Origin: Gnetum montanum
Lineage: Eukaryota; Plantae; Gnetophyta
Direction: 5' to 3'
Assembly (NCBI GenBank): GCA_015680685.1
Contig: MNCI01002616.1
Coordinates: 130,378 to 194,377, forward strand
DNA: 64,000 nt
Positions 6,976-33,341 of the stretch are shown here, piece after piece; position 1 is the first letter of the stretch, and every line of letters begins with the position of its first letter. Position numbers and translations under genes: made by a program. The notes beneath the pieces were generated by a model. It saw only the letters and a list, made by a program, of their open reading frames with translations, was not told the DNA's origin and ran no database searches.

Positions 6976-8279
6976 TGAAACACCACCAAATTTGGGAAAA
7001 AACACTACAATAGAAAATTTTTCTAGATGTCAACTCAAGGTAAATTTTTCTAAGTGTTTGGCCCATGATCCCATTGCTAGGGTTATGCTGTAGAGTGTAG
7101 CCAGCGTAGCATGCAACATGACCAGATTTGCAAAATTTTCTAAGTGCCAAACAGTCATGACAAAAATTTATCTAAGTTCCTTGCTATGCTCACATCCCTC
7201 TTTTGCTATGCTCTCTAGTGTAGTAAGTGTAGTAGGACTCTAGTTGCTAGTTTGCATGTGTCAAGCTAGAATCTGTCAAGCTAGCATTGCATGGAAGAGG
7301 TAATTGGTAGATTTTCTAACTCTTGAAGCTACCATTTCTACTACACTCTTAAGTGTAGTTGACATAGCAAAAACAAAGACTACAATTTTTGTTAGATTTC
7401 TCTAAGTTTCTGTGCTATGCTCTATCCCATCCTACTATGCTCTCTAGTGTAGCAAGCATAGCAGCACTAGACTTTAGTTTTTGCAAGAATTTCCTAACCA
7501 TTGTGCTACATTCCTAAGTGTAGTTAGCATAGTAATAAGAAAATACCTTCAAAAGCTTCTAGAGCTTAGCACAGGACTTCATTCTAGCTCTAGCACTCCT
7601 CTAACAAGCCAAATTAGCAACTTGCACTCTTTTTGTACCTCCCCCTATGTTCCAAAGTTGTACCTATGCTCAATCCCACTTGAAAGAGGACAGAATATAA
7701 TCTTAGAGCATAGGCCTCCAAATTGCATTATTTTGCACTATTTGTAGATACATTGTAGTCTTGGAACATGTAGCTTAAGCATCATAGCTAGTTTGGTAGT
7801 CTCCTAGGGTCTAGTGAAGTGTATCAAAGCGTAGCACTAGTTGTCCCACTGAGAGTGTAGCAAAGGTTAGTATAGCCCCACCTACCCCTTTTCCATGTGA
7901 CACTTAATCCATAGTTTGTGCTAACCCTAAGCCTATAAATACCCTACATTCCATACTTTAGGGGTTGGCATTTCATTCTAGTAGTGGGCATTAGCATTTC
8001 AGAGCACCATTTGGCACTTGAAGCACCTTGAGAACCCTGCATAGTAGAGCATATTAACATCTTGGCAACACCTTTACATCCCACTTAGCACTGTAGCACA
8101 CTACAAGGCCATAGGAGACTGCAGCAGCCAACCCAACAGGAAAAAATCTCATAGTGGATGTTAGTCTTCATCCTGGGATACCTCAAAGACTCTAGTTACA
8201 TTGCTATTGCATCTTTCTGTACCACCATGTACCTCTGCAAAGATCATTTGTAATTGCTATGCTCCCCATTTGGGGTGGT
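6976..8279 (+). repeat. Partial LTR (element F) inserted into the gag of D
   Basis: Begins TGAAACACC, is rich in GCTA/TAGC motifs and has CCTATAAATA at ~7932. It breaks at GGGGTGGT, a motif near the 3' part of family LTRs, where the next LTR starts. Confidence 0.65.
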
Positions 8280-9545
8280 TGTAATGACGGAAAATGTCGT
8301 CAGCTGGAATACCAAACAAAATCTGTGTACACAGTCTTAACCACGGATCCGTGCGAGGGCTGTGTTGGAGAAAACGAATCCGTAGTGCCCTGAACGGTCT
8401 TGTCGATCAGATAGGGACTTACTAAATCAGTAAATCGATGAAGATTGTAGACGTTTCGTGGGATGATCTGATTCGATAAATCATGAAAGGAGAGGAAAAC
8501 GATGTAAATAAATTGCAATAATGACAACGTTAACACTACAAAGGGAATCAGATCTAAGAGAAATGCGTGATTTCAAGATCTATACTTTGACCCGAAAGAA
8601 ACAAGTATTTTGTATACAAAGTTACAATGGGAAGATCCCGATTATCTTGTGTGGAAACATACACAAAATGATAAGAAAACTGTTTAACAAGGAGTGCAGA
8701 ATAGAGCTCGGTCTACCTCAAAAGCCAAAGACAGAGGGCAAGGAAGGTCAAGCTCGAATACCTATCAACCAACTGTGTCTGGCCAATAGATCTTGCCAAC
8801 CTCACCAAATGATCTCATGATCTCTGATCTATCTTCTTCACTTTGGATAGTCTTTGCTCAAAACTACCAAGGATCACCGATGGGAGAACTGTATCTTCGT
8901 CAAAAGGGGGTGATCGCTCTTGCTGCCAAAATGCTCCCAGAATGTTTCTTGTTTTTGCTCAAGGATGATAACTGCCAAAAGGTTCAAGATGTCAGCTACT
9001 GCCCTTCTCTCAAAAAAAAATGTCTCAAAAAGAAGGTCCCATCCTCTTTTCTTCGTCGACTAGGGTATTTATAACATACAGAAAAGGCACGGCCTTGATG
9101 ACACGTGTCCAGAAGTTTTTGGATGTCGTTGTCTTGATGAACTGGCCATGTCATGTCACATTGTGACGTACACTGTCAACACTTTGCTGAAGCTGCTCCA
9201 TGATTACACACAAATACTCTTATCAGTGTATTGCACGTATGGATAGTAAATGTGTAATTGCTTTAGCTGGCTTTACGCTGTATTTTACTTGTTTATGCTG
9301 CGTCGTGTGGCAGAGCGTAACAAAGCATGGAAATATTGAGTCAGGCTGTTTTACGCTCATTTACGCAGCAAAGCGTAGTGAAGTGTAAAACATGATCAAC
9401 CTGACAATAAATTACGCTTACGTATGCTACGTAGCATAACGAGCGTAAGGCGATCAATCTGCAAAAAGAAAGGGGTCGATCTATTGCGCTTCCCTTGGAC
9501 TTTTCTTTTGACTTTTTTGAAGCTCATTACGCTGTCTTGCACAAG
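8280..9545 (-). repeat. Truncated LTR (G), close to the LTRs of element A
   Basis: TGTAATGACGGAAAATGTCG... is colinear with 17583 onward until ~9545. Minus-strand TATA (TATTTATA) at ~9066. Confidence 0.85.
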
Positions 9546-10384
9546 GTCCATGGCCCTATGTGACTATGCACAAGAAAACCCTCTCTTTGAGGAGCCGTAG
9601 CCATGCAAATGGGGGAATGAAACCTCATTCTCTCCCTACTCCCTTGCCTATGTGCTAAAACCCTCTCAAATCCTATCAATCATGCATTTCCCCTAGTCCC
9701 ATTAAATGTGAGTAACCAAAAAAAGAAAAAAAATGTAGGCTCAACCCACACATGGATCTTCTCCCCTTGTCCATGGCTACCAAGGTGGCCAAGGAGGTAG
9801 TGCCTACCTAGGCAGGTCACCGAAATATCCAAACCATAATGCTAGGGAAAAAGGGTGAATGTAGCACATGTACTTGGTAGATAGTGACACTTTCCTCTCT
9901 ATCACTTGAGCTCATGGTAGGTGTTTTAGGACTCATCTTCCCTCTTCCATGTTACTAAGTCTAGGGTGTCAATGATCACTGAGATGTGTCATCCTAGTGC
10001 TACACTTGGTTGCTACACTCTAGCACTTCATCTATTTTTCTATGCTCTAGGCTCCACACCTCACTCTATCCATGCTCGATTTGGTGGTTTCTCATTTTTA
10101 TGCTGAAAAGTGATAGTTTACCCCTAGTAAATCATGCATATATACCCTACCGAGGTAATTAAAATTTTCCAAGTTTCTTGTGAAGCATAGTAAGAGGGGG
10201 CGAGCATAGCAAGGGGTGAGCATAGCAACTAGACTTAGAAAAATTTCTAGCTTTTTTCTAACAATCCAAAACTTAGAAAATTTTTGAGATTTTTCTGTTT
10301 GCCTAGTGAATGCCTAGCTTAATGCCACAATCTAGACACTTCTTACTTGGCTTGAACTAACATACCTTGCATAAATCATGATTT

Positions 10385-10566: not shown

Positions 10567-12479
10567 TGAAACACCATAAAATTTCAAGACCCTCATGCTT
10601 TAGCAGAGTCTTGGAATTCAGGCAAAGACTTCCACAAGTGTAGTATCATGATAGTTTAGTAGGAAAATGTAGGCACTGAGGTTGGACTGTCTAGTCTGGC
10701 AAGTTTTCTATCTCCAGATAGGCCTACTAGACTCTTCAGTCTACCCAACTGGACAATTGACCTGGTTGACAGTCTACCCAAAAACTATTCTAGGAGTTGT
10801 TGAAAGTGTTTCGGATGAGCAAAACAGTTCGAAAATTTTTTTAGTGAATAATTCTACTACACTACGCTATGCTATGCAGCGTAGCAAGCCTTGAAAAATA
10901 ACCACTCAAGTGTCCAAATGCAAATTGATAAAGTGATTGAAAAGAAAAATAGGGATTTAGCTAACACAAGGTGCTACGCTATGCTATGCTATGTAGCATA
11001 GCATAGTGTAGCAAAGGCAGAGCAGAAAGGCCCATCTTGCCAAGTGATTCCAACAAGAAAAAAAATTTGGTAGGACTTTGACCTCCAAAACTCCCTTCCC
11101 CACTTAGTCCTCAAGCCTTGAGCAAAGTTTCTTGCTAGAAAATGGAAAATTAAACAAGGAAGCATGATACGCTAGCTGCTACACTATGCTATGCTACATA
11201 GCATAGCACAGCATAGCAACAATAAAAAAATAACAAAAGTGTGCCAAACATGAATTTAGCAAGTCCAAAGGCTTCCCAACATGAGGGACAAAAGTTGCAA
11301 TTGTTAACCTAACTAAGCCTTAGAAAAACACTCTTCGGCTCCTATGTAAATTTTAGTCAAGACCAGTGGCTACGCTATGCTACGCTACGTAGTGTAGCAT
11401 AGTGTAGCAAGTAGCTACTTATTCTACACCAATGTGTTCAACAACGTGAGTAGTGAAACACTAGCATGGAGGCATCAAGACGTCTTCGGGTAACTCTAGA
11501 ACTTGTTGACAGTAATCTTTCTCACTCTGGCATCTCGTTAGCAAGATCAGCAATTTTACTTCATTTTGCATAGCCCTGGTCAACTCAAAAAAAAATTGTT
11601 CCTACACTTGACCCTACTCAGAAGGGCATGGAAGACATAGTCCTGGAGCATAGGCTCCATTTTGTTTACATTCTGAGCACACTAGATCTCGACACATGCA
11701 ATTTTAGTGGGATAGTCATAACATAACAAAGTTCCATCCAGCATCGCATACCTACACAGTACAAACATATTAGCACCTTATGAGGTCTAGGACATGTGGC
11801 ATCTAGACCACATTTCTCCCCTGCTCTTGATCCTATAAATACCTTGGCAAACAGCGCTCAAAGGATTGGCTTTTTTGCGTTGGCTGGTTGGCCTCTTGAT
11901 TGGCTTCTTGGAAAATAGAGTTGGCTTTTTGGTGCAGTTCGCTCCTAAGTTGGCTTTCAGAAGGCATAGTTGGCATTTTCCTTGAGCATTCTATTTACTT
12001 TTGAGTTCTCTGGTTGGCTCCAAACATCCCTTTGTGAGTCAAGAATTTTGACATCTTAGCAAATAGAGCAGCAAGTAGAAGACCTGTGACTATACTGTTA
12101 AGTGTAAGCAGTGTCTCTTTGGTGTTGCATAACCTATTGTACACCTTTCAAACAAGGCAAAGAATCAAATCCACAGCCTTGGGGTGGTGCACTTTCTCAC
12201 CTAAGTTTGTTTCACTATTTCCTTACTATAATCGTTGTTTTGGACTATTTTCTCCATTCTTCATTTATTGATCACCGATTTATCTCACATGTCTCTCTTT
12301 AAAAAAAAACATTTATGTAAGGTTAAGATACACCAATTAAGTCCCTGTCTGATTGACCAAACTATTCATGGTGCCCCACTTCCATTTTTCTCTAGCACGG
12401 CCCTTGCACGGATCCAGGGTTAAATTGTTCATTCGACATTCTCTCGATGTTCCAGCCATCGATGTTTTTGTTCACTATA
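10567..12479 (+). repeat. 5' LTR of element B
   Basis: TGAAACACCATAAAATTT... matches 63784 onward. TATA (CCTATAAATA) at ~11833. Ends just before the PBS. Confidence 0.9.
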
Positions 12480-12484
12480 GTTTT

Positions 12485-12501
12485 TGGTACTAGAAGGAGG
12501 G
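12485..12501 (+). promoter_or_regulatory. PBS of element B (tRNA-Asn type)
   Basis: TGGTACTAGAAGGAGGG, a CpG-decayed TGGCGCTAGAAGGAGGG. Confidence 0.8.
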
Positions 12502-12727
12502 CCTTTTTGGTTCCCTTTCCATGTACTATGGGTAGCCTTGCATGCTCTCTATACCCTATCACACACTAACATAATTGTGATACCCTTTTGTGGTTGTTTA
12601 TGCATCGTGTGGTGTAGATTGGTCATGATGATGGTTCCTTTGGAACTTGGTGGGACGAAAAGCCTCCGATCTCCTATTTATTTTTTCATTTCTTGTTTGT
12701 TATTTTCCCTTTTTTTTATCACACAAA

Positions 12728-15700
12728 ATGATTCTTACAACAATAGCTATTTTCACCTTGAGCCTTGAGGCTCCTTTTTTGGCTCAAAGCACCATGGGTG
12801 CCGAGTGGCCAACTAGCCCAGTGCTGGCACCATGCCAGCCCCTTTGGATTTGACATCTGGCACCTGAGTTCTTGGCACAAGACGTAGAATGTTATGACTT
12901 CATCTACGCAAAGATCCAAGAAAATCTACCCTTGGATTGCCAAGCACTCAAGAAAAAACACAACTTTGAGTTCCTTCATAGGAATGGGAGGGAGTTTGTC
13001 CCTACCCCTGACGTTACCATCCCCCTGACGAAAATGTATCAATGGATCTTAGATTAGCTACTGTGAGTTAGTAAGCCTAGGAAGTAAGACACGACATTCC
13101 ATTATGATGAAGCATTCCAGGATGGAGAGGAAGACCTAGACTCCCAATCCGAGGGTGGTGGTCAGACTTACCCTATGACCATCCCTCCTACCATGGTCTT
13201 CAGGACAAACCCACTTTTCGCATCAACCCTCTTTGTGATTACCATGACTCTGTCCCAATCTACATTTTCATAAACCATGGGCAACCATCCTGCACCCTCA
13301 ACGTGTCAACATGCTTCTCCGTTAGTTTCATTCCTAGGCACTTTCCCTCCTCATTCTATGCCATTATGTGCACATGACATCTACTTCACAGTCACATGGA
13401 GTCTCTGCTCCTATCTCATCATCTACACTTGTTCCACCATTAGCAGTAGGCCTAGCCCCAACCGCGTGGTGGACCCCAGCCACTTTGCTCCCTATTTCGC
13501 TACCCCACCAGATGCCACATTACCCTTACCACCAAGTAGATCAAGTCCTATAGGTGTTGCAACCAAGCATCGAATTGTGGTCCATCCCATTGATCATGCA
13601 AGTGACTAACCCCATAGCACCACCAGCTGTCACAGCTCCAACAACACCACCCACTAGGTGGTAGACCCCATAGGTAACACCCTTCGCAAGGGTAGCCCCA
13701 ACAACACCCCCTATGAGGCATGCCGCAATCCTTACTACACCACCAATGATGGTTGCCCCCACAACCCCACAACCATCTACATCATCTCCAGGTCTAGACC
13801 AAGCATTTCAACTTATCCAGACCCTCACCGAAGAGGTTAAACATGTCAAAGTTGTCAATTCTGATATGGTGTAGGTCATGCATTTCTACCATGATGACCC
13901 CATTATCCTGGTAGTTCCTATGCTTACATTACCCCCTAGGATGCTACTCTCCCAATTTACAAAATACAACAGTGAGGGTGACCCTAACACACATTTAGTT
14001 ACATTTAGATCTGAATCTTTGTTGTTGTAATAGTGGCCACACACCATTATTTGTGTCTTTGTTATCTCTAACAATAAAAGCTTTATACTGGTACTATGCA
14101 CTCCCACATGCATCCATCTCAACACTGGAGGAGCTACTGACCCAATTCATGACCCACTTCAAGTATAACTTGAAGCCCAAAGTCACGCTGGATCAGTTGA
14201 TGGGCATTAAGAAAGACCCGCTAGAGTCGGTGCAATGGTTTACATAGCGGTGGAGTGCTACCTTGAATGAGATCCATGAGCCTATCATGGAGGCCCATTT
14301 TCTAGCCATCTTCAAGGGGGTGCTAAATGATTTCATCAAATCCAAGCTGTACTACCTAGCCCCACGCTCTCTCAGTTAAAATTTCACTCAGACCAAAAGC
14401 ATCCAAGATGCAGCCGAAGCTAGTAAGGACCTGACCTACGTTGCATATAAAAATGCATATACCAAAAAAAACAAAGAGAAGGGTAAAGCTATAATAGCCA
14501 CGGTGGCTGCCGTGGCCAATGAGGCAAAGCCCAACAACAAAAATAACAAGAAAATAGCCACAACATCAGCTAACCCCGTGCCTAGCCTAGGTAACACTAC
14601 CCAACCCTCCATGTTAGCACCAGAGGCACCCACTCCACCTAAACCCAACTTTGAGTGGAAAGATCGCTCCAAGTACACCCCTCTACCTGTCAAGCCTTCA
14701 GAACTTCTAAAGCAATTGCTAAGGGCTGGGTATATTCAACATAAGTGAATGTCAGAGGAGGTGATCAAATGACATCAGCAGTATTGTGAAATCCTTAGGA
14801 ACCCCTCCTTGGCTATGCCCAATGAGCTGCTAGTTCCTAAGAACTTTAGGCTAGAATGGTTCTATGACTACCACCAACTTTGTGGTCATGACACAGATTA
14901 TTGTCTAGCCTTAATAGAGGACATCCAATGGATGATTAATCGAGGGAAGTTGGTGCTAGAAGAAAGTAACTTTGTCTGCCCTGAAAATCAATCCATGCAC
15001 GTTTACAAGGACCCTCTCAACACTAACGACGTGGGGTACATTATCAATACAATTGGCATAGATGGTAATCTAGAATCGCCGTAGCAGCCGTTTGTGGTCG
15101 TGTACCTCAACGTAGCATAGTGACATAAAAAATGGAAAAAAAGACACTACAACAATCATTTTTCCTCAAGGTTCCTCCTTAGACATCTACCCTTGCACCC
15201 TTCATATTCATAACTACATTGCCGCCTACACTAATGCCACAAACACCATTTTTCATTAGGCAGCCAAAACACTCAACTGCCCCATCACATAGAGCCAACC
15301 TAAGACGACATCACAACCTTTCCATTCAAGAAAATGGGAAGAGTGTACGATATATGAAATGATCAAGGAATGTACTGCTACAGGTTCTTCGAATCCTACG
15401 CCCTCTTCCTTCATGTCTACACCCCCCTCATCACCAAAAGCTAATGCCACTATGTGCACACGATCATCACAACCCCATCCAAAAGGTGCTAGCCCCAAAC
15501 TTGAAACTACTCCTCGAGAAATTTGTCTTCTAGGATGAATGGAGGAAGATAAGGGCAACAAACAACAAGAAAGTGGATAGGACCTCCTAAATTCCCTTAC
15601 TCAGGTCAAATAGACTTTGAAATAAAATAACACAACCTTGAGCCTATACGACTTGGTAATGACTTCCACTGCACACTGCGAGGCTTTGGTTCACATGTTA

Positions 15701-16453
15701 CCATCCATATTGGTTGACAAAAACATGCCAACAAAGGAGAAAGCAATCCATGTGGTCATGCTTCTTTCTACACTAGAAGAACCATGGCCATCTCAATTAG
15801 CATTTTGTGAGGAGTCCATTAAAGATGATCCTGAAAAGGGTCGCACGACAACAACACCCATGTTCATCACGATTCAGGTCGGTCAACACAAGATCTGAAG
15901 AGTACATGTTGATGACGAGGTTGCTACAAATGTCATCCCATTTCCCATAGTGGACAAACTCGGTTTGGTGGATCAAATCAAACCCATGACAATGTCATGT
16001 TTGAAGTTGTTCAATGGAGCATGGGTGGTGGTAAAAGGCACTATCCACATTAACTTTGTTGCAGGGGATTAGTTTCCCACAAGTGTAACCTTCATTTTGG
16101 TAGAAGAGATGCCTGGGTTTAACATGATCTTGGGGAGGTTGTGGTTACCCCAACTTAGGGCTGTCTCTTCACCCATACATCAAAAAATTTACCTACCTTA
16201 TGCAGGTAGATAGGTGGTGATCTATGGCAACGAAGTAGCTACCCAGGCAATAAACAATGTTGACATGGAGCAAGGCTCAGAAGTAATATCCTCTAAGACT
16301 GAAGCATATGTCTTCACTGAAGCTACTTGTTTGGCAAATAAGCTAGCCCAAAACATTAGCTTAGAAAACAAAACTACATGGGTAGAATTACCTTGTCAAG
16401 TGATAGATAACGATGTAGAGGAATACCACAATAAAGCCCCTTGGCAAGAATAA
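12728..16453 (+). pseudogene. gag: gag-protease of element B (stops and frameshifts)
   Basis: Gag core ALYWYYALP...FKYNLKP, Cys/His box F(Y)DYHQLCGHDTDYC, protease RVHVDDE.ATN and FNMILGR.W. Confidence 0.9.
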
Positions 16454-16619
16454 TTGTTACCGATGTAGCATAACTACTCCGCTGCTTCCGACATGGCTAA
16501 CACTTATCGTACGTTTATTCTTTGATGGCTTCATATTTGTTCGATTACACTAAGTGTCTAACTCATTCTTTAAACCATTCACATCATGTCCACTGTTTAC
16601 ATTACACCACAGACTGCTA

Positions 16620-16765
16620 AGGCCTAAAACTGGCAAAATTTTTCCTTACCATCATCTAATGACCTGAAACGACCTAAAACTACCGATGGCCCAAAATGGC
16701 CTAAAACTAGTGATGGCCCAGAATGGCCTTAAACTATTGTTATGGCCCGAAATGGCCTAAAACTA
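16620..16765 (+). repeat. Post-protease tandem array (TGGCCYGAAATGGCCTAAAACTA units) of element B
   Basis: Repeated GGCCTAAAACT units read directly. Confidence 0.85.
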
Positions 16766-17582
16766 AAACGAGATGCTCCTAACGAATTTAATTCATAAAA
16801 AAAGATAAACAATAAAACAAAAATAAATACAACATATAGGCCAAAATGAAATAAACCTCTTCATATTCAATTTTTTTCTTTCATTTAAAATATTAATTAA
16901 TAATCTTTTCAACATTTTTTGTGAAAATCCAAATAAAATTCCCAGCTGCTACGCTATGACCCTTTGCCCAGTCCATCTTCCCTTGCTTCATTACGCCCTA
17001 TGTTTTCATCTAGATTCTGTACCATAGGAAAAATGAAAGTCAGTTAAAGCTACAATAAAGACTCGAAGAAAATAAATTGTCACAATGCCAAAAGGTGACT
17101 GACCTGAGACGACCCCACGTCGATTTCGAGGGGTATCCGATCCAAGCCTACCGTGAGGCATTGAAAGATCTCCTCTTCAGTAATATCAGCCTAATTCCTA
17201 TCTCCCAGGTCAACGCTTGTTGCAACTTTCTCCTTTTCTATGGATGTCCATCTCAGTGGTCCTGGAGAAAAGGTGGCAATAGTGATCTCACCCATGGGAA
17301 AGGTCATTTCCCTTTCGGGAGATTCACTTACTGTCACTTGTTGCATAAACCTATCATAAGCCCCAGAAGCACCAATAATGTCAAGGAATACCTCGTAAGT
17401 ATGTAACTTGATAGAGGCATCCTAATATTGGTTACGGTAGGTGGCACGTTCTAGCTTATACATATGTTTGTGGTTTTTCTGTGCCTACCCCCACTTGTAA
17501 ATTTTTTCACTATAGTCCTTCTAGTCTTGGTTCTTCTAGGATAACAGGTCAATTTGCATGTGTTGTTCTATTATTTCATGAG

Positions 17583-19036
17583 TGTAACGACGGAAAACGT
17601 CGGCAGCTGGAAAATACCGAACAAATTCTGTGTACACAGTTCTAACCACGGATCCGTATGAGGGCTATGCTGGAAAAATGAATCCGCGGCACCCTGAACG
17701 GTCTTGTCGATCAGATAGGGACTTACTAATCAGTAAATCGATGAATGTCTCATGGAATGATCTGATTCGAGAAATCGCAAAACCAAGAAAAATGACGTAG
17801 ATGAATTGCAACGACGATAATGCTAAAAGCGATAAGAGAAGGCTAGCACAAGAGAAACATGTAGTTTCAAGATCTATGCTTTGACTTGGAAAAATGTATA
17901 TTTTGTATGCCACATTACACTAGGGAGACCCCGATTGCTTGATGTAAGGTAAACACAAAACAACAAGGAAACTGTCCAAACAGAAGTCCGATCTACCTTG
18001 AGGGCTAGAGCCAGGATGCAAGGAAGGTCAAGCTCTGACGCCTACCGATCAATTGTTTCTGACCAATAGAGTCTTCCCCAGCAGAACGATTACTCCTGCC
18101 ATCGGTACTCAAAGTTAACTGTGCTCTATTTCTACCGGAAGGTGATGCTGTCAACAATTGCCAAAGCACTGCTCTCTGTGTCTCTGCTTCAAAAGTGATA
18201 AGTGCTCCAGTGCTTAGAAAATGCCTTTGCTTTTTTGATTTGCCAACCCCTGTATCTTCGTCAACTGGGGTATTTATAGGCTGCAACATCTTGTGGAAGA
18301 GGCACAACCCTAATGATGCGTGTCCCAAATGTTTCGGGTACTATTGGTCTGACTGTTTTTGTGTAAGGCTTCATAATTACGCACAATACGCTCGTTTGCG
18401 TATTGTGCGTGTGAAGAAGAGGTGCACGTCAGGCACGTTTCAACTGCCTTTGGGTCATATTATGCTCATCACGCTGCATTGTGTGCACGAGCGTAACATA
18501 ATCATGGAAGCAATAGATTCAGGCTGTTTTACGCTTGCATACGCAGCTGCGCGTAATGAAGCGTAAACGATGTCTAGCTTAGCGACGCAATACATTATGA
18601 TATACTACGTTGCGTGATGAGTGTATGATGAGCAGTCACACTTTCTTAGACTTTGCCTTTGACTGTTTTGGAGCCCATTACGCTGACGTGCGTAACAGAG
18701 TGTAAACATGGCCTTGAACCAAAGCCTTAGCAAAATATACAAGAAGTTGTATATTACGCTGCTCAAGCTTCTCCCTATGCCAAAGTAACTAGGCTTTTGA
18801 TGCTGGAATAGGTTTAAAGAGAATAACACTAAGCGTAATTACGCTGTGTCACGTGATATAGCGTAAATAGAGAAAACATAGTAAGATTAGAAATCTGCGC
18901 AGGAAGTTGAAGACTTGATGCTACGCGCCTCTTGGTGTTGCTCTGGCTTATTCTTCCTTTTGGAATTCTGACATGTGCCCTTGCCTGAATTGCGAATCTT
19001 TGCCTGAGGCCGACTCATAATTTTCACGGTGTTTCA
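17583..19036 (-). repeat. 3' LTR of element A
   Basis: TG...CA termini, colinear with 33366-34798. Confidence 0.97.
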
Positions 19037-19050
19037 ATGGCCCCTCTTTA
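19037..19050 (-). promoter_or_regulatory. Polypurine tract of element A
   Basis: Minus strand reads AAAGAGGGGCCAT directly before TGAAACACC. Confidence 0.85.
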
Positions 19051-20134
19051 TTGACGGTTGGAGGGCTTACCCGAAAGACGTCGACAAAGAATACAAAACA
19101 CCGGATTGGTAGAAGCAAGAACAACGTCCATCCATGGCTACTCAGGCATTGCCCTGTCAAGATGAAAGAGCAAAGCTAGAGGAATGGGAGATAAAATGAC
19201 ATAAGGCAGGAAACAAGTTCGGGGAAGACATAACATAGGTCAGGATGGTAGGAGTATGGAATACGCTTACTGAACGCACATAAACGTATGCACATGTAAG
19301 TCAATAGGAATGCTTTCAAATGAGCATAACCCGTCAGTCTGAGATCTCTCTGTCACTGATTATAGCAGGAATGCTCGCAAAAGGAGCATGGCGCATCACT
19401 TCTGTGATATCTCTGCTAGTGGGAGTGCGGAAAATGGATACTTGCGTATGGGAAGCGGGTGGTGGGGATGAAAGGAACCAAGAGCTAAGGGTAGGATTGT
19501 GAGAGGTATAGGCATGCAGATCTAAGTGGTTGGGCAAACCTGAGCAGCCATCTCAAAACGCTATTTTTTTTCACCGCTCAAATGGATGCACCTTTGAACC
19601 ACATCCGCGAAGCAAGTAATCTACAACCACAGAAGAAAATAGAGGGCACGATTGCTCATGCGAACAAGAGGCGAGGTTGTTGAAACGAGCACCGTTTGAT
19701 GCAAGATAGAGCGATTGGACCATGAAGAAGGAGCTGTAGCATGAGGGCAGAACCGCCAATCCTGATGATTGGCCCAGCATATCTTCGCCAAAAGGCATCA
19801 GACACAGTGCAGCTAACTGGTTGTACAGGAAACCAGCTAGATGAATTTGTGAAGCCAGCATCTGATAGCGATGATCGGCGGAGGTCCCTGAGGCCGTTGT
19901 CGAGGAGGATTTCGTCAGGGCTCCGGCTGGCGGGACTAAACTCTCAGAGGTGCCACCACTGCAGTGGGCGCAGCGGTGGCATCTCTGAGGGATCAGTAAG
20001 ATGCCTCTCAGCTCATCCGAGGAATCAGTAAGATGCTGGTGGGGTGGCGACACTGGGACTGTCCCTGTATCCCACCTTGTTGTTTGTGCAACTGTAAAGA
20101 GATGATCATGCTTGCTTGATTTACATGGCAGCAG

Positions 20135-20640
20135 TCTGTAAGTCCCAGTTTTAAGTCCTGGTAGACTGTCGTTACTAGTTTTAAGTCTCAGCAGAACATG
20201 GTCCCAATTTAAAGTTTGGGAGGACCGAGAAGTGCTAGTTTTACGTCGTAGCGGATGGTGCCATGTATGATTTATGGTCTCAGCAAACCGTGCTGTGGAC
20301 GTCATTTTCGTGTCATGACCCAGGGACAGATCTATGTTGATTTTATGTCTTAGCAGATGGCTACTTACCTGTGCCAGTTTAGCATCGTGGCGGATGCGTG
20401 CAAATGGTGCCAGTTTTTCGTCTTGGCGGACCTGTACAACAATGCTAGTTTTACGTCGTAGCGGACGGTTGCAACTTGCCAGTTTAGCGTCATAGCAGAT
20501 GAATATTGCCAGTTTAGCATTGTGGCAGATGCGTGCAAGGAATGCCAGTTTTACGTCGTAGTAGACGATCAGTGCCAGTTTAACGTCGTAGCGGACGTTT
20601 AGTGCCAGTATAGCGTCGTAGCGGACGAGTATTGCCATAC
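20135..20640 (-). repeat. Post-integrase tandem array of A (~30-36 bp units, GTCCGCTACGACGTAAAACTGGCA)
   Basis: More than a dozen degenerate units with GCCAGTTT(T)A on the plus strand. Confidence 0.9.
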
Positions 20641-20664
20641 CTGCTGTTAACACCATAGATGCTG

Positions 20665-23600
20665 CTAAATGTAATACCGCTTCAAGTACACATGATTTAC
20701 AGGATTTGGTAATTCATTGTTGTTGACATCTACTAACTTGAATGCGCCGTTGCTATACACGTCGACCACCAAGAAAGGGCCTTCCCAGTTTGTAGAGAAC
20801 TTGCCTACTGGTTCATGCACAGCCTTGAGGACTAGATCTCCTTTCTTGATCGGGCGCTGTTGAAGGCTGTGATGATGCTTCTGTCTCTGTTTGTCTTGAT
20901 ACCTTTCAATCGTGTTAAGAGCCTGTATCCGCTTCTCTTCTACTGAATCCAGATTCGCGATTCGAGACTCGGTGTGTTGAGCCTCATTTATAACTGTGGA
21001 GAGGACCATCCTCAGAGAAGGAATTTGCAACTCGAGAGGCAGCACTGCTTCAGACCCGTAAACAAGGCTATAGGGCGTACTACCCGTAGTACGGTATGCC
21101 CATAGCACATAGAGGATCTGTTCGTGCCACCACGTTTTGTTGCCGTCGAGCATTTTCTTAAGCAGATTAATGATCACTTTATTCATTGCTTCAGCTTGAC
21201 CATTCGCTTGTAGGTAATAGGGAGAGGAAAAGGATTGTCTAATGCCTAGGTTGTCACAGAAAGATTTGGTTTCTGTGCTACTAAATTGTGGTCCATTATC
21301 GGTCACGATAGTCATCGGGAGACCAAATCTGGTTACTATATTGTCCAGGATAAAATGGAAAATCTACTGAGATGTGATCTTTCACAGGGGAACAGCCTCT
21401 ACCCACTTCGTAAAATACTCAGTAGCAGTAATAATGAAGCTATGACCAGTGGAAGACTTCGGCGTGATGGGGCCTATAATGTCTAGTCCCCATCGCTGAA
21501 ATGGCCATGTTATCTGCATTGTATGTAATTCTGTGGGTGACACATGTATGAGGTTAGCGTGATGCTGAAACATGTCACAAGTTTTAACCTTTGTCAGGCA
21601 ATCCCTTTCCATGCGCGGCCAGTAGTATCCTAAACGATGGATTTTTAGGGCCATAGCTCGTGGTGCTACATGTTCGCCGCATAGTCCCTCATGAACATCG
21701 CTGACTATATGCTGCGCTTGGTTTTTGTCAACGCAAGTAAGCAGCACGCCATCAAAGGAGTGTCTACAGAGAGTGCTGTCTCTGATGATGACATATTGCT
21801 TAGCCCGCTTACGGATTGCGTCTTTCTGTGCGCATGTCAATGTAGATGGTAGCTCGCCCTGTAAAAGATAAGTTTTAATGTCGTCGTACCATTCAGGCGT
21901 GATTTCCTCAAGAAGAGAGGAGATTTGTGTCATCTGAATGATAGGATCTGCGCAGTCTATAATCAATTCAGGATAGGTGTCCAAAAGATGTGCAGGCACG
22001 TTCAAAGCTAGTGTTGCCAGTGCATCGGCCAGTGTGTTATCCGTGCATCGATGGTCGCGAATCGTCTCAAAAGATCTTTAGTCGTATCGCAGTAGGGCTG
22101 CAAATGTACAGCCTTGCAGGTGTAGACTCCTGTGATCTGATTTATGACAAGCATCGAATCACCCCTAATTGCCAGGTGTTGAACATCGAGTTCACCGGCA
22201 GTTAGTAATCCCCTGAGGAGCCCCTCGTACTCTACCACATTGTTCGTACAAGGGAAGGTCAAGCGATAAGCATGCAGACACACATCCTAAGGCGATAGCA
22301 TGATAACAGTGGCAGCACTGCCACCTCTAGCGGTTGAAGCACCATCAAAGTACAACGTTGCTTCGGGGCCTGTCGAGATAGGGCTTAAACTATGTACATG
22401 TTCGTCAGGGAACTCTAGTTCTATGGTCACTTGATTGTTAATTGGTGACATTACTAACTGGTCAGCTATCGCTTGGCCTTTCATAGATGATTGGCCGACA
22501 TAGTGCAGATCGAATTCTGCCGTGATAGCCTTCCAGTGAGCTATTTTACTACTCTCGTATAAATTGTGCGTAATGGTCCTAAGAATGTTGTTTTTACAGA
22601 TGATGTTGACTTTGCTACGGAAAAGATAATGTCTACATTTTTTAAGCATAAAAATTAATTCTAGGCAATTACGCTCTATGTCGTTATACCTCATTTCGTA
22701 CGCACATAGGGCATGAATCAAGTAGTAGATGGGCACTTCCGACCCATCGTCCCTCCTTTGATAAAGTAATGCGGCTAACGCTACGTCCGACGTTGCGAGG
22801 TAAATGTAAAAAGGCAAGTCCCTTTGTGGGGGGAAAACTGTCGATAAATGTTGTAGTTCTTGTTTTAAACTATCAAACGCACATTGGTAATCATCGGTCC
22901 ATTCGAAATTAACCCCCTTTTTCAGCAAGTGTTGCATAGGGTGTAGCTTGTCGGTTAATCTCAAGATGAACTGGCATATAAACTGTAAGCGTCCCTGTAA
23001 CCCGCGTAATTGCTTGAGGTCTGTAGGAGGCGTGAGCTCAACAATGGCTTTGACTTTATCAGGGTAAACTTGTATGCCAGCTTTCGACACCACAAACCCC
23101 AGCATGCGTTCGATTTTGACTCCGTATACGCACTTCTTTGGGTTAAGCCGGAGCTCATATTTGAAACATCTTTTAAGGACTAACTCCAGGTCTCCTGAAT
23201 GATCCTCAAACTTTAAAGACTTAACTGCTATATCATCTACATAATCATTCAGCCTTCCTAAGAGGTAATTGCGGAAGATGTATGTCATGGCTCGTTGATA
23301 CGTTGCTCCGGCGTTCTTTAGAACAAAAGGCATCATAGTGTAGCAGAAGGTGCCCCAAGGTGTCATGAATGTTGTGGTCAGCTGATGTTCTGGGTTAATG
23401 CGAATCTGGTTATAACCCGAAAAACCATCCATAAAGGACAACAACGCATGCCTAGCTGTTGTGTCAACTAGTTGATCGATACTTGGAAGTGGGAAGTTAT
23501 CTTTGATCGTTGCCTTATTCAAATCCCGGAAGTTGATGCAGATGCATATGCTTCCAATCTTCTTTGGGACGACTACAATGTTAGACACCCAATTTGAGTA

Positions 23601-24122
23601 ATCGACTGCACGGATGAACCTAGCCTGATACAGTTTAGTGATTTCATCACGCACGGCTAGCGCGATTTCTGGCTTAATTTTGCGTGCCTTTTGCCTAACT
23701 GCCTTAACCTATGGGTCTAAGATGATGTTATGTTGGATTAGCCTGGGATCTAGTCCAGGCATATCCTCGTATGACCATGTGAAGACGGTAATGTTGTCTT
23801 GCAGGACCTATGTTATGGCATCGTGCGTTTTCTGGTCTAATAAAGAACTGACTTTAAGCGCTTTGGCCTCACCTCTATACGTAACGATAGAGACCTCACT
23901 GAGGGGGTCTTCGGTTATGTCTCCAGCCTCCAGATCTAGCATACGTGTTGACTATTCTAGCCACTTTGGGGATGTCTCCGACGCAGCTATGGTTACGGCT
24001 TCTAAAGAGGGGTTAGCATCTATCAACGTGGAGTCAAATTGTCTAACTATCTTCCCGTGTGGGCCTGTCAAAGTTAGGGGTGCTGAAACTGTTGCGTCCA
24101 TTTGCCGTCTGTCCTGCAAAAC
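20665..24122 (-). pseudogene. pol: pol of element A: RT - RNase H - archaeal-type RNase H - integrase
   Basis: RT motifs LSFMDGFSGYNQI, MPFVLKNAGATYQR and YVDD. RH LATSD..YYL. aRH LYFDGAS, TNNVVEYEGLL and GDSMLV. INT HEGLCGEH, WGLDIIG, TDNGPQF, NGQAE and NWEGPF. Confidence 0.97.
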
Positions 24123-24527
24123 CTTCAAGTGCGTAAATGATTAGGAGACAAGTGACGTGATGTCGCCGAACATGGAAGGCTAACTAAATTTTGAATATTG
24201 TAGACAAGCTGTAATCAATGCAACCCGATTACGAGGTGATAAGATGTGGTAGTTTAACATCATTTCGGACAGTGGCACGTGCAATATCAGCCGCATTAAT
24301 ATTTGGATTTTCAGGTTCCGTTTTAGGAAAGTCCTGCTGAAATCGGCTATCAAGTCGGTGATCCTCGCGTATAAGCAAGTAGTTTTTTTTTGATGAGGAC
24401 AGGTTGTTGGCTGTTGAGAATTTGAATTCGTGACTGTCGTTGAGAGAAGGAAGAGTAGAAAGTTAGAGCGTGTAATCTTGCGAAGATTTGCAAGTGTTAA
24501 GCTGTGAAAAAATCTAAAGCCTTTGCA

Positions 24528-27500
24528 ATGGCACCGAAGATCAAGAGGAAGAACGCAAAACTGGCCAAAATCGATGAAATGCATGCAACCCTGGATCGTG
24601 TTTCGCAGGCTCTGGTCGATGTTCATGACCCTATGCCTTTGAACCGGTAGGTCATTCTTACATGCTTATGCTTGTTTCTATGGCTACTTTTCGTGGTATA
24701 TTTTTGTTTACGTGAATGTGGATTTCAAATTGTGGACCTCGGGTTAATGCGAGGGTTGATGGGGTTGCGTCTACCGCCATTGTCAGGGATGAACCTTGCG
24801 TTATTGCAAGGGTTTGGGCGATTTTGGCCTGGATAGCTAAGTGTAGTTTATGAGTTTTCTATGTTAGTCATGCAAATGTAAATGTAGGTGTTAATGTATG
24901 CATTGGGTTTTTTGTACAGCGTTGTGCTAAAGCCTATTTTGATTGTGTTGGATATTGTCAGGGTTTTTTGTTGTGTAAACCCCATCGTCCCCAATGTCCC
25001 TCCCCCGCACACGCGGTTGCAAGGAAAGGCCATATGTTTTTGACAGGGTGCGCTGGAGTTTCTGCAATTCTTGCTGCGCAACTTCAGCGTCATTGTGTGG
25101 TTTGACCTATCTGGCGACGTCACCGGTGCTCTTTTAGAGCACCTGCTGGTGGGTTCTGCGTAAGGGATTCTGGCCTTTTTGATGGATCGGGCCATCGATA
25201 CGGGCCGTCCCGAGGACTGAGAGCTTAGCGGCCGGGGCTTGCAGAGCTTAAACTGGATCTAGGAAATGGCTCGGTTCAGTTGTTATCACGCATATAACAT
25301 GTTGTTCATGGCTCGCCATGTCTCGACCTATTTCCAGAACCCACAAGGCACGATGTACTACGCAGGCGGGTAAGCAAATTTTATTGACTATCTATTTTTC
25401 TATTTTGTTTTGTTGTATGTCTGTTATCGGTGTGAAATATAAGAGAAGCTTATGTGCAAAATGTAAAATAAGCCTATGTTGTATGGTACAGGTTCTTTAT
25501 TCAGGACAACAGGTTAGTTGGAGATGGGTATGTGTTATCATGGGCCGAAACAGCAATAATGGCGTTTACTACAACTAGCAACGTGTGCGCTGGTGTTATA
25601 GAGCAGATTGGCTTTGACATGCATAAATACCCCACCCGTTATGCTAGGGCTTTTGAGAATTGCCAGAGGCTCGGGTGGCTGCACGATGACTGGACTCTAG
25701 ATCTGCCCCTTACCGTTGAGGACGTGCAGAGGGAACTCCCGCCATTTCCCCTACCATTTGGCCCCAGTAAAGTTGTTGTATAGTTGGTTATTGCGTAATG
25801 TAGTTGTAAATTGTAAGCATTGCGTAACAGTGTTTTCATTTGACTTGTGTTTTACGTTGTTCAGTTAGGGAATCCCGGGAGATTACCCTTACGATTTCCG
25901 GCCGCGAGGTGAACGCCGTCCTCTTTCGCTACGGCGACATCAAGGACACACAGTGCTGGCTCGGCCACTCGACAACCCCAGTCGCGATGAGCTCCAAGAT
26001 CCGAGCAGCAAGGCTAATGCACCTATTTTTGGCTGTGACTCCTGATGTCCTCGCCAGTGAAATGCTAACCCTGGTCAACTCCTTCAACAAAAAGGTCGAG
26101 CGTTTCTGGATGCACGTACATAACGTGTGCGTAAGCTTTAACATCGATGCTTAGATCTTCGTGGACCTCTTTGGTGTCCCCTCAGACGGCCCTCCCGTAA
26201 GTGAGAAGGCGAAGAGGAGTGTTGCCTTCCAGAATTGGCTGAAGGAGTGGGTAAGGGTCCCGAAGAAGACTAAAGGGTTTCCCTGCGAAAGATTCGAGAT
26301 GGGTGTTGCCAAGACACTTTATCCCCTTTTCCGGGCCCGGAATTTCCCCAAAACTCTCTCGCAGGGGAAGTTCTTTTCTGTAGAACAGACCCGTATTATG
26401 CGAGAGGTTCTGGAGGAGGGGACCCAGTTCAATTAGACAAGCTATTTTGCCAAGGGACTGCGTAATGAGATGATCAAGCTTCGCCAAAAGCTTGAGTCCC
26501 ATTTCAACGTGCATTACTCCTTCTTCATAGCTTACCTTCGACGGTTTGCTGAGTTTCTGGTCATCCAAAGACATGGGGTCTGGGTGCAGCAAGACCGAGA
26601 CCAACTATCCAGACCTTGGATTGCCCACATCCTCAGCACTACCTGTGGGCAGGATCCACCAGAAGGGATCGGGGAGTCGCTGTCTATAATGACCAAGGGT
26701 TTGCCGGCGCCCCAAGTGTGAGGCCTCAACAGTGTAGGCGAGATAATGCCTACTTACACCAGTGACGCCTCGCGAGGGAAATGCCTGGCGAAAGAAATTG
26801 TAGAACCTGCAGCTCGGCGTAAGAGACTCCGTATAGCCGAGGCCCCTGAGGGTGATGCAGGCCAAACTATGGTGGCCAAAGTTCAGCGGAGTAAGCCTCC
26901 GCCTGGTAAGCGTGTAGAAATTGTATTACACAACGGTTGTTTGGATGTTTTGTAATGATATACTAAGGTGCTATGACATGATAAGTAAAAATTACGAAAG
27001 AACTAACCCCTGAGACGGGAGTAGTAACACTAAGTCGTAGGGAGAGGGCCTCAATTTTAGAAGAAGAGGCCCAGCTGTTAGCGTGAGCCGTGTATAGGCT
27101 CTGGTGCATGAGGAGGCCCCAGCTACTGGAACCAGCAATGCACAAACTCTAGTGCGTGAAAGAGAAAGGGCGGCTGAAGATGTCGGTGAAGTTGCCACTG
27201 TCACCGGTAGAGGTAATGGTGTGTTAGCGTGTTTGCAAGATTTTTGTAAATAGATGAGGTTTCTAACTGGATTACGCTACAGGAGAAGAGGAGGTGTCCA
27301 CGTCTGTCGCTGTGAGCAGAGCGTGGAGAGACTTTCCAGAAAAATTTGCCTTCATGGAAGGGGTTGTCAATGACATGATTGAGCGCCTGGAGCACGTCGA
27401 ACCTGGAGCTGGTACGTTATGGTCATAGTCAGTTTGTGATATTACACAGTGGTAATATGTCATCAACGTTTGATGGTTGTTTCTATTAGGAGCTTGCCTC

Positions 27501-28663
27501 TGATGGGATCCCACGGAGCCCATTGATCTGGACATAGTGGAGCCACCATCCAATGAAGCAGCCGTGCCACGTCACATTTATGAGGAACTGTGTAAATGTG
27601 CATTATGCTCGACACGCTCCTTATGGGAAGGGCGTAAATGAAAATCTATGGAAGAGGTTGCAGAAGTCAGAACAGAGGGTTGAGTCTCTGACCAAAGAGG
27701 ACGGAGACCTAAAATCACGATGTGACTTCCTACAAGCGAGGGTGACAGGGGACGAAGACTGGAATACCGCTATTGTCGACCACTCCCAGTACTGGACAGC
27801 CATCAAAAACAGCGTGCAGACCAGTCAGGCATTAGTCGAACAACAGATGCAGATAGAACTCCTAGCCTAGAAAAGGTGGGACTGGAGGGATTATTGTGTA
27901 AGCATGCAAGAGTGGGGGCAGAAGGATAAGGACCACAAGCACTTGTACAAGCGGGAGAGTATTGCTTATTGGAAACTCTACCGCGATCTTGCCGTCAGGG
28001 CCCAGTCCTTGGAAGTCTTCCTGGATGTCATCGGAGCTTTCGAAGCTTTCAAGAAGTTTGAGGAGCAGGTGATTGTAAGTGCGTCTCCCGAAAGGGCGAT
28101 GAATCTCCCTGGGGGTCAGGCTACAATCCCTACTTTCTTCCCAGACCCACCCCGCGAGAGCAGCGTGGAGAAAGGGAAAGTGAAGGCCGGATCTGCCTTG
28201 GGAGGGGATGTATGGCCAGATCTAATGGAGGAAGAGATTATGGAACGCCTGTGGGCTAGCCTGGACAAGCTCCCCTTTGCTGCGGAAGCAGGGTCGTCAC
28301 AAGTAAGTTTACGCGTGACTTAGTTTGCGTTTCTGATTATGATGTTAAGTCTTGTGTAGCTAATGTGCTTACTGTGTTTAGGTACTAGCCGAGGATAGGG
28401 AAGATGAACAAGCTGAGGAGTTAGCAGAGGGAGCGATGGAAGCAGAGGAAGAAGCAGAGGAAGAGGCAGAAGAAGGGACAGAAGAATGCAACGATGAAGA
28501 GCATCCTTCCATGGAGCCGACGCCAGAACGAGGACCTCACAAAGAGGACATTCTTCATGAAAGAATCATTCCTAGAAACGACGGCCCATTTGAGGACGAT
28601 CCATTAGCGTTGGATCTGGACTTAAGAGATACCGGTGATAGTGGTAGTAGAGGAAATGCGTAA
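24528..28663 (+). pseudogene. Antisense ~8-exon cargo gene of A: FCP1/NIF HAD-like domain, plant-transposon-protein-like domain, coiled coil and acidic tail
   Basis: Exons at 24528-24646, 24920-25369, 25492-~25767, 25865-26905, ~26969-27206, 27283-27411, 27490-28302 and 28382-28663. GT-AG introns with compatible phases where checked. Most in-frame stops are explained by C->T/G->A decay, plus about 2 frameshifts. Confidence 0.8.
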
Positions 28664-28861
28664 TTATAATTTACGCATAGTTTTATTGATGTTGAGTTGA
28701 GTGCAATATCATTTTACGAATGATTGAAAAGACGTGTTATAAAACCTGGTGGATGCGTTAAATGTCAGTTACACATTTTTTATTCTTTTTGCGTTTTTCC
28801 TGTAGAGTGTGAGTGTAATCGTTGAAAATTTCACCTAAGTGAAAATGATAGAGTGTAATTG

Positions 28862-29106
28862 TTAGTTTAAGGCCATCGCGGGCTGTCACATGATTCTGCG
28901 TAACCTAGCGACTAGTTTAAGGCCATCGCGGGCCATTGTGTAATATGCATAAATGATAGTGGTGTAAAATTCTATGTCACTAGTTTAAGGTCATTGCGGG
29001 CCATCATATGGTTCTGCGTAAACTAGCGACTAGTTTAGGGTCGTTGCGGGTAATCAAGCGTATAGTATACAGTTCTGGCAACTACTTTAAGGCCGTTGCG
29101 GGCCAT
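28862..29106 (-). repeat. Post-protease array of A (GCCCGCGATGGCCTTAAACTAG units)
   Basis: About 5 spaced copies of TAGTTTAAGGCCATCGCGGGC on the plus strand. Confidence 0.85.
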
Positions 29107-29333
29107 AGCGTAATATAGCAAGCGTAAATGATACCGGTACAGAATTTTGCGTAATTATACTAAAGTGATCAGGAAACGTGCATATCATGCGTACAAAAAA
29201 GATAACAGTGTAAAGATAAATGACAAGCGTAAGAACTGAAAACGAAAGTAACGTGACAATGCATGAAATAAAACTACTAAGTCAGCACCATGATAACTCA
29301 CAAAGACAGGATAATGCACGTAAGGACCATCGT

Positions 29334-33120: not shown

Positions 33121-33341
33121 TGGGTAATGAGATTAATGGTAAGTGGTAATCGGATCTAAGAAATGGTCAGCAACAAAAGCACAAATAGGCTTTCTACCCT
33201 GTAGGATTTCAAAGAAATCGTCCTTGCGACCGATCTATACCACGCGATTGGCTGTAAACTTCCCTAGAGGTATTACGTCTATGGTTTAGGGTATGGATCA
33301 CTACCAGGGCTACCTGAAATATTTGGATCGAAGCCTGAAGG

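Follow-up and report, generated by a model that had tools for sequence, protein, structure and literature searches.

A stretch of 64,000 nucleotides from Gnetum montanum (the window, whose positions are used throughout) contains nested plant long terminal repeat (LTR) retrotransposons: three elements, A, B and C, and two solo LTR-like stretches, F and G. Short words built on the core GCGTA are repeated in the LTRs and in an internal region that carries an extra antisense gene (the cargo). They are written GCGTAA in A and G (A-type) and GCRTAG in B, C and F (B-type). We propose, at a probability of about 40%, that these words are half-sites of dyad-symmetric response elements, which would be bound by a protein on duplex DNA and would control both the LTR promoter and an internal promoter of the cargo gene. 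The specificity of the word, the strict dyads, the place upstream of TATA boxes and the conservation of the half-sites together make the motifs look like binding sites. In the proposed mechanism, a dimeric or higher-order sequence-specific factor would read the half-sites, one factor may co-regulate the LTR promoter and the internal antisense cargo promoter (at least in B and C), and the difference between the flanks would reflect that the preference of this factor, or of its paralogs, has shifted. We lean towards a host transcription factor as the reader, the cargo protein of the element being the main alternative. The elements, their LTRs and their cargo regions are located as follows.

17583-34798, minus strand: element A, LTR pair 91.5% identical, target site duplication ATGAG
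35496-54236, plus strand: element B, LTR pair 81.6% identical
10567-17582, 34799-35495 and 54237 to the window end, plus strand: element C, host of A and B, 3' LTR from 63784
17583-19036, minus strand: 3' LTR of A, with 11 GCGTAA/TTACGC at 18377-18866 and a TATA box (TATTTATAG on the plus strand) at 18271
33366-34798, minus strand: 5' LTR of A, with 9 GCGTAA at 34139-34628, all shared in position with the 3' LTR
8280-9700, minus strand: LTR-like stretch G, 73% identical to the LTR of A over about 520 bases
10567-12390, plus strand: 5' LTR of C, with a TATA box at 11833
10857-10890, 10974-11015, 11179-11220 and 11370-11412: inverted pentamer clusters of the 5' LTR of C, (CTAYG)n followed by (CRTAG)n
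35496-37199, plus strand: 5' LTR of B, with inverted pentamer clusters at 35769-35796, 35852-35874, 36049-36086 and 36278-36305
52501-54236, plus strand: 3' LTR of B, with clusters at 52779-52945 and 53319-53409 and a TATA box at 53636
about 7000-8279, plus strand: LTR-like stretch F, with B-type words and, at 7933, a CTATAAATA box, all within 7084-7941
24009-29342, plus strand (antisense): cargo region of A, between reverse transcriptase (RT) and protease (PR), with 18 GCGTAA copies
41401-47220, minus strand: cargo region of B, with 22 B-type words
54237-58580, minus strand: third piece of the cargo region of C, which is split by the nested A and B

The motif-dense stretches that had been described in an earlier note on this DNA were all recovered. 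The A-type word was found at every position cited for the LTRs of A, for G (7 copies at 9273-9532, with one module homologous to 18529-18566 of A) and for the cargo of A (25793, 25822, 28658, 28671 and 28898-29227), and the B/C-type clusters were found at 10857-11011, 11179-11216, 11370-11407, 35769-36086, 43083/43115, 43770-43797 and 56851-56912. The words were counted against 200 dinucleotide-preserving shuffles per compartment, the B-type count being the sum of GCGTAG, GCATAG and GTGTAG so that CpG-decay forms are included. The enrichment per subfamily that the note had supposed is clear, both spellings being far above the shuffles in the counts given below; these raw counts are not independent events, because LTR pairs are copies and the B/C arrays are tandem pentamers in duplicated modules.

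GCGTAA, 3' LTR of A: 11 observed, shuffle mean 0.6, maximum 3
GCGTAA, 5' LTR of A: 9 observed, shuffle mean 0.8, maximum 3
GCGTAA, cargo region of A: 18 observed, shuffle mean 1.7, maximum 6
GCGTAA, G: 7 observed, shuffle mean 0.4, maximum 2
B-type word, 5' LTR of C: 29 observed, shuffle mean 2.1, maximum 7
B-type word, 5' LTR of B: 22 observed, shuffle mean 2.0, maximum 8
B-type word, 3' LTR of B: 17 observed, shuffle mean 1.8, maximum 5
B-type word, cargo region of B: 22 observed, shuffle mean 6.4, maximum 15
B-type word, third piece of the cargo region of C: 15 observed, shuffle mean 4.5, maximum 10
B-type word, F: 20 observed, shuffle mean 2.5, maximum 6

Over its three pieces, the cargo of C has 18 B-type words. 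The leader, the 3' untranslated region (UTR) and pol of A, B and C showed no enrichment relative to the shuffles, and a mild one was found in gag-PR (4 copies against 0.6 in A, and 13 against 3.4 in the gag-PR compartment of C). An unbiased ranking of 6-mers was headed by GCGTAA or AGCGTA in the compartments of A and G (GCGTAA is first or second in all four) and by CTATGC/CATAGC in B and C. The one-base variants of GCGTAA are all low, save the CpG-decay forms GTGTAA and GCATAA. The base before GCGTAA is A or T in 32/36 copies, which gives the A-type consensus W-GCGTAA-W.

The core GCGTA is common to both spellings. It is followed by A in 45 of 60 occurrences in A and G (A LTRs 11/15 and 9/15, A cargo 18/22, G 7/8), and by G in 22 of 30 occurrences in the LTRs and cargo of B and C (C LTR 5/6; B LTRs 4/5 and 4/5; B cargo 5/9; C cargo 4/5). 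Standing alone in the cargo regions, the B-type word is TAGCGTAGCA; in the B/C LTRs, 3-4 CTAYG units are followed by 3-4 CRTAG units, in four inverted clusters per LTR. The observed/expected ratio of CpG is 0.29-0.35 in the B/C LTRs and 0.91-0.98 in those of A, and the low ratio in B/C indicates that GCRTAG is CpG-decayed GCGTAG. The spellings truly differ, but in flank and packing and not in the core. The switch from GCGTAA to GCRTAG between subfamilies, as it was first described, is thus retained as a difference of spelling and has to be given up for the core, since GCATAG/GCTATGC is decayed GCGTAG.

Two other identities were considered for the hexamers and rejected. As 5' splice donors (GC|GTAA) in the cargo of A, their contexts are too varied and several are in frame within conserved blocks. 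As host sites of the NAC, bZIP or CAMTA type, they probably do not qualify, as the W before GCGTAA does not fit the usual forms. Some modules are centered on ACGT-core boxes (CTACGTAG, TGACGT, CACGTG), which may be a lead to a host factor; no match to the site of a named factor was established. A literature search on the hexamers returned unrelated papers only.

The spacing of the words follows a strict grammar. Dyads were surveyed in five independent LTRs (F, G, the 5' LTR of C, the 3' LTR of A and the 5' LTR of B; 8184 bases), a single CpG decay being allowed. Divergent dyads TACGC-N-GCGTA occur 17 times at spacer 6, 22 times at 16 and 7 times at 26. Spacers 11 and 21 have 11 and 6 dyads, in the pentamer arrays of B/C only, and any other spacer from 0 to 30 has 0-5 each. 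The convergent arrangement is found 0-2 times at any spacer. Dinucleotide shuffles gave a mean of 0.04, and the observed sum of dyads was reached in 0 of 2000 trials in which site number and orientation were kept and positions were randomised within clusters. The window has 22 N6 dyads in all, and 21 of them are in LTRs or LTR-like stretches. Neighbors in the same orientation are spaced by 10 bases in A/G, by 5 or 10 in B/C and by 9 or 10 in F, where the B-type words (GYRTAG[CT]A) form direct pairs 9 bases apart and dyads TAYRC-N6-GYRTA lie at 7084, 7207, 7342 and 7436, upstream of the CTATAAATA box. This grammar is shared although blastn found no alignment of the B, C and F LTRs to each other or to that of A, nor of F to any of the other LTRs. 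The dyads of A are the following.

18378-18866: dyad modules in the U3 of A, with TACGC-N6-GCGTA at 18387, 18540 and 18679
18840-18865: TACGC-N16-GCGTA palindrome in the U3 of A, centered on CACGTG
18833: GCGTAATTACGC in the U3 of A

The arrays are placed upstream of the LTR promoters, as is typical of U3, and B-type words recur at the putative internal promoters of B and C. Read along the element strand, the LTR clusters of A, C, F and the 3' LTR of B precede a CTATAAATA box by about 100-960 bases.

18271 (minus strand), 11833, 53636 and 7933: CTATAAATA boxes of A, C, the 3' LTR of B and F, with the arrays upstream
57878-57990, minus strand: putative internal cargo promoter of C, with a CTATAAATAGGG box at 57878-57886
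46560-46660 (approximate, from the alignment with C), minus strand: putative internal cargo promoter of B

In C, GCGTAGCA (57948) and GCATAGCA (57980) are found roughly 60-100 bases upstream on the cargo strand. In B, the TATA box differs from that of C by one base, and GCGTAGCA (46622) and a CATAGCA copy are just upstream on the cargo strand. The arrangement of an internal TATA box with two B-type words within roughly 100 bases upstream is conserved between B and C, ahead of the first cargo blocks. Further B-type copies lie upstream in 49-base tandem units, those of B containing CTAGCGTAGCAG at 46802-46910. A TATA-like box that directly adjoins a GCGTA is present at 24367 in A, about 160 bases ahead of a candidate start codon at 24529. 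The spacer between cargo and RT in C has two divergent CTATAAATA boxes 110 bases apart, at 57995-58003 (plus strand) and 57878-57886 (minus strand). The plus-strand box points at the RT, RNase H (RH) and integrase (INT) part of pol and could, from its position, mark an internal sense promoter.

The half-sites are better conserved than the sequence around them. When the U3 regions of A and G are aligned, 50/63 positions within the half-sites of A are identical, against 211/390 outside (Fisher p=1.7e-4). Family contigs from four DNA runs (four organisms) were mapped on the U3 of A (18250-18900, 651 bases) at 80% likeness. Each run had 3092-3898 fitting contigs, most of them below 95% likeness, and the family is hence a very abundant one. 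The three N6 dyads of A are all, together with the TATA region, in the bins of highest summed depth, contig depth being a poor measure. Of 40 listed majority differences (112 in all), 0 fall in a core pentamer, a weak point because only intact cores had been selected. The majority base at 18539 is T, by which the ATACGC of A becomes TTACGC. Joints at which contigs of the four runs go back on the reference indicate that modules 18369-18435 and 18540-18581 are tandemly duplicated in other copies. At 18377, the first base of a TTACGC, C accounts for 58-90% of the depth of family contigs in the four runs, which gives CTACGC with a B-type flank; from this site, the two spellings may interconvert at single positions within the family. 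Between members of an LTR pair, CpGs inside and outside motifs were retained alike, at 13/20 against 29/64 in A (p=0.20) and 2/9 against 4/30 in B (p=0.61), both on small samples. Motif CpGs decay after insertion like other CpGs, and the effect on methylation that had been suggested for the motifs did not appear by this proxy.

The modules are extended imperfect palindromes with predicted stems of 12-20 pairs and loops of 4-6 bases, and this raises a different explanation of the spacers. Among 19 folded stretches, 14 had z <= -2 against shuffles, down to -7.8, and 9272-9316, with a single half-site, had z +0.85; because the stretches were picked around known dyads, these z-scores partly restate the dyads. 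The strongest predicted folds are listed here.

10970-11016: predicted fold, -32.1 kcal/mol, z -7.8
18375-18412: predicted fold, -23.5 kcal/mol, z -6.9
11366-11412: predicted fold, z -6.4

The palindromic modules could fold as hairpins or cruciforms in genomic RNA or single-stranded cDNA, GCGTA being the conserved end of the stems. Such structures would lie in U3 at the 3' end of the genomic RNA and in the cargo region as a retained intron, and may serve in export, packaging, dimerisation or small-RNA production. Nested arms yield exactly the spacers 6, 16 and 26, and in A/G the spacers between the cores also pair, in a shifted register. The strand bias of the internal copies of A (15/18) suggests a strand-specific reading at the RNA level. 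An Ogre-like element that exports a genomic RNA with its intron would need such signals (for the intron, available text of PMC6317226). However, the convergent arrangement would pair equally well and is absent, and the words are upstream of TATA boxes, in a part of the 5' LTR that is not transcribed; the internal copies of B/C are likewise upstream of the internal TATA. Most internal copies of A are partnerless single hexamers, yet they are enriched about tenfold, and three sequences are too few for covariation testing. We consider folding an unlikely basis for the words, though a serious rival to binding sites on duplex DNA.

The distribution of the internal words bears on whether they are merely a by-product of mutation. 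In B and C, 3/22 and 1/18 words are in conserved coding blocks, where 53% and 48% would be expected (p ~2-3e-4). In A, 7/18 are inside conserved antisense coding blocks, and the exclusion from coding sequence fails. The non-coding location first attributed to the words is therefore valid for B/C and only in part for A. Copies on one strand amount to 11/22 in B and 6/18 in C. A neutral origin would have a pentamer microsatellite or palindrome-prone sequence grow by slippage and inverted duplication and then be inherited, the spellings being lineage history. This agrees with the tandem pentamers of the B/C arrays, with the modules that are duplicated inside LTRs and vary in copy number between copies, with the avoidance of constrained coding sequence by B/C words and with the decay of motif CpGs after insertion. 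Slippage leaves unexplained the 18 isolated hexamers of the A cargo, which have varied flanks and include 7 in coding blocks in several codon phases. Nor does it explain the strict spacing of dyads in five non-aligning LTRs, the higher conservation of the half-sites, with their hypermutable CpG, relative to the flanks, or the absence of the words from the leader and the 3' UTR, which are likewise non-coding. We therefore regard such an origin as very improbable.

Several observations also weigh against half-sites read on duplex DNA. Upstream of the presumed cargo start of A there are only one GCGTAA (24131) and the GCGTA at 24367; the remaining internal copies of A are in introns, in exons (7/18) and in the spacer downstream of the cargo. 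Of these 18 internal copies, 15 are on one strand (plus, the cargo-sense strand; p=0.008), which a model of symmetric DNA sites does not predict. A hairpin in RNA or single-stranded DNA accounts for the same spacers. The A-G alignment may be anchored on the shared words themselves, and some copies (18491, 18529, 18833/18839) are in low-depth valleys of the family-contig mapping. Duplicated LTRs, tandem pentamers and duplicated modules inflate the counts, and the sample is a single window with no more than three elements and two solo LTR-like stretches.

The cargo gene occupies the gap between gag-PR and RT, which is 5.3-6.2 kb long in A, B and C. Translated similarity between the elements in this gap is best in antisense frames (tblastx); between A and B, antisense matches had 219, 204 and 162 bits and sense matches 103, 134 and 75. 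The identity of the cargo blocks is 39-48% across clades (about 43%) and 46-58% between B and C. The blocks of A are given here.

about 24507-24668, 24897-25376, 25475-25774, 25984-26826, 27230-27400 and 27628-28380, plus strand: antisense coding blocks of A (tblastx)

The gene is broken in all three copies, with 3 stops in the central block of A, 11 in B and 6 in C, mostly TAG (2/3, 8/11 and 5/6, respectively). In the alignment of the central block, column 155 is an in-frame TAG in A (26434-26436), B and C alike, and a further in-frame TAG is common to the cargo copies of A and B. The TAG stops would fit a decay of CAG codons by parallel C-to-T changes at methylated CHG sites. Four RNA runs compared with 17585-33367 gave 44-377 reads, mostly 90-95% alike and fitting in part, and thus derived from other copies; no splice joints and no start or end of a transcript emerged from these runs, at very low depth.

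Searches with the cargo protein found little. No Pfam family was detected in 8 stop-free cargo pieces, nor, with E up to 10, in a 284-residue read-through of exon block c with X at the stops. The same read-through had 0 matches by phmmer among 1.84 billion representative proteins. A word-indexed search with a 93-residue cargo piece at longer lengths gave 29 candidates, none of which scored, and the unaltered 93-residue piece had no usable match in the protein atlas. AlphaFold2 on the 3-row cargo alignment gave a mean predicted local distance difference test score (pLDDT) of 30.9 and no usable fold. Given that neither a Pfam family, a homolog nor a usable fold was found, no DNA-binding domain and no VANC homology can be demonstrated for the cargo; VANC itself presumably corresponds to a named Pfam domain. 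In the protein sequence there are acidic runs, a basic RRKR stretch and a long segment of helical/coiled character, which fit a nuclear regulator as a description and are not evidence for one.

These results bear on the suggestion, made in the earlier note, that the words are bound by the cargo protein. VANC anti-silencing proteins are encoded by Arabidopsis VANDAL (Mutator-like) transposons and have target motifs there (available text of PMC5735166 and PMC10398659). By analogy, or in the manner of a viral transactivator, the cargo protein might bind the words that lie in U3, in the cargo promoter and across the cargo gene and activate or de-silence only its own subfamily, and the A-type and B-type spellings would have co-evolved with diverged cargo proteins. 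In line with this, the words are element-wide yet confined to U3 and the cargo region, being absent from leader, 3' UTR and pol. The two spellings in one host genome track the clades A+G and B+C+F, a mild argument for readers encoded by the elements, and the cargo promoter of B/C has the same words as the LTR, as an autoregulatory loop needs. The one-orientation bias inside A and the variation of tandem modules are both reported for VANC targets (available text of PMC5735166), and the RRKR stretch, the helical/coiled segment and the acidic runs agree with such a role. On the other hand, Pfam and phmmer detected no DNA-binding domain or family in the cargo and the AlphaFold model is unusable. 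The core and dyad geometry are identical in both clades, which weakens the case for a true switch of specificity. Moreover, the LTR arrays are inverted and not in the same orientation, CpG retention is alike in and out of motifs, and none of the three cargo copies is intact. As the window has two clades only, co-variation of spelling and cargo is indistinguishable from common descent. A cargo protein acting as reader is thus doubtful in our judgement: the part of the suggestion that stands is that the motifs look like binding sites, and the link to the cargo protein finds no support in the family, homolog and fold searches. Response elements on duplex DNA, read by a factor that we lean towards placing in the host, remain our preferred reading.

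A second family of repeated words, TAAACTAG / TAAACTGGCA, forms tandem arrays (27-30-base and 49-base), in which the unit is GCGTAAACTAG in the spacer of A and CCTAAAACTAG in B and C.

41563-41837, 16673-16765 and 28890-29240: TAAACTAG/TAAACTGGCA arrays just after the protease
20476-20637, 50714-50819 and 62047-62343: TAAACTAG/TAAACTGGCA arrays in the C-terminal coding part of pol, as 10-residue repeats
46802-46910 and 58071-58200: TAAACTAG/TAAACTGGCA arrays before RT

The nesting of the elements is well defined. The three pieces of C are collinear with A and B in translated comparisons. The insertion site of A is in the last cargo block of C and is flanked by a clean duplication of 5 bases, ATGAG, at 17578-17582 and 34799-34803. 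B is inserted into C 694 bases beyond A, and a matching duplication was not seen at 35496/54236. To the left of F, there is a gag-like fragment (6474-6668) that is 67-76% identical to the gag regions of A/B, which suggests that it is what remains of a further related element. By Pfam, the order of domains is gag, PR, RVT_1, RT_RNaseH, Integrase_H2C2 and rve, that of Ty3/gypsy. Between RH and INT there is a second RNase H-like domain, PF13456 (E 1e-9 in A, 3e-8 in B and 1.5e-7 in C). The closest relatives of the RT are plant proteins with <=51% identity, many of them having PF13456. In the REXdb survey, the Tat clade is recognised by a second RNase H-like domain (aRH; available text of PMC6317226). 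By their domains, A, B and C are Tat/Ogre-like Ty3/gypsy elements.

Compared with their known relatives, the elements have the order gag-PR ... RT-RH-second RNase H-INT of Ogre/Tat, with gag-PR set apart, and an extra antisense gene of unknown family as in Grande, RIRE2 and Retand. In Ogre, gag-PR and RT-RH-INT are split by a spliced intron and the gap averages 274 bases (available text of PMC6317226). The gap here is instead about 5.3 kb and is occupied by an antisense gene. The antisense additional open reading frames (ORFs) of Grande, RIRE2 and Retand are located between pol and the 3' LTR (available text of PMC7264820), unlike the antisense gene described here, which is between protease and RT. 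Element-wide words are not mentioned in the available text of these Ogre/Tat and antisense-ORF sources (PMC6317226, PMC7264820). An Ogre-like split between protease and RT that is enlarged to >5 kb and occupied by an antisense gene is an unusual architecture for the host of such words.

The likeness to VANC targets is partial. These targets are the words YAGTATTAY or AGTTGTCC/AGTTGTAC (PMC5735166, available text). As described there, a short word is highly enriched in one family of transposable elements, it is mainly non-coding, including introns and upstream regions (the A cargo being an exception here), it differs between related families and its tandem repeats vary between copies; density matters for VANC targets, and we count this feature as matching here. 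In contrast to VANC, the carrier is an LTR retrotransposon and not a Mutator-like element (MULE), the extra protein has no detectable similarity to any family, the VANC family included, the LTR arrays are inverted dyads and the core of the word is common to both subfamilies. VANC is defined by binding and loss of methylation, which for the present words are hypothetical. No report of VANC-like self-recognition in a retrotransposon was found in the literature searched, which is not proof of absence. It is rather unlikely that this Tat/Ogre-like clade has its own orphan antisense regulator reading GCGTA dyads, with private spellings (WGCGTAAW and TAGCGTAGCA) that restrict activation or de-silencing to its own kin. 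If the antisense protein did read the words, this would be, to our knowledge, the first VANC-like self-recognition in a retrotransposon, and the additional antisense ORFs of plant LTR elements, long without an explanation, would acquire a function. Should the reader be a host factor, the family has tapped one regulatory input, which is now searchable. In both cases the matter is of interest because the transcription and the distinctness of subfamilies of the LTR retrotransposons that fill giant plant genomes are poorly understood, and a concrete cis-code is offered, with a five-base core, a fixed dyad spacing, two spellings at defined positions and two promoters that share the code.

The transactivator of foamy viruses acts through response elements that are present in the LTR as well as at an internal promoter. 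A cargo protein that reads the words would work by the same principle, namely an accessory gene with an internal promoter of its own and response elements shared with U3. The accessory gene here differs in being antisense, interrupted, located between protease and RT and without homology, and its binding is only proposed. LTR retrotransposons and retroviruses commonly have short cis-regulatory modules repeated in U3, ahead of the TATA box; the number of modules varies among copies, and related families differ in their modules. Beyond what is ordinary in such U3 repeats, the word described here is also spread through an internal region of 5 kb and is present at an internal antisense promoter, the dyads have strict fixed spacers and two spellings stand side by side in one genome. 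What is unusual, therefore, is a dyad grammar common to LTRs that do not align, a word that extends over a 5-kb internal region and its antisense promoter, and the existence of two dialects.

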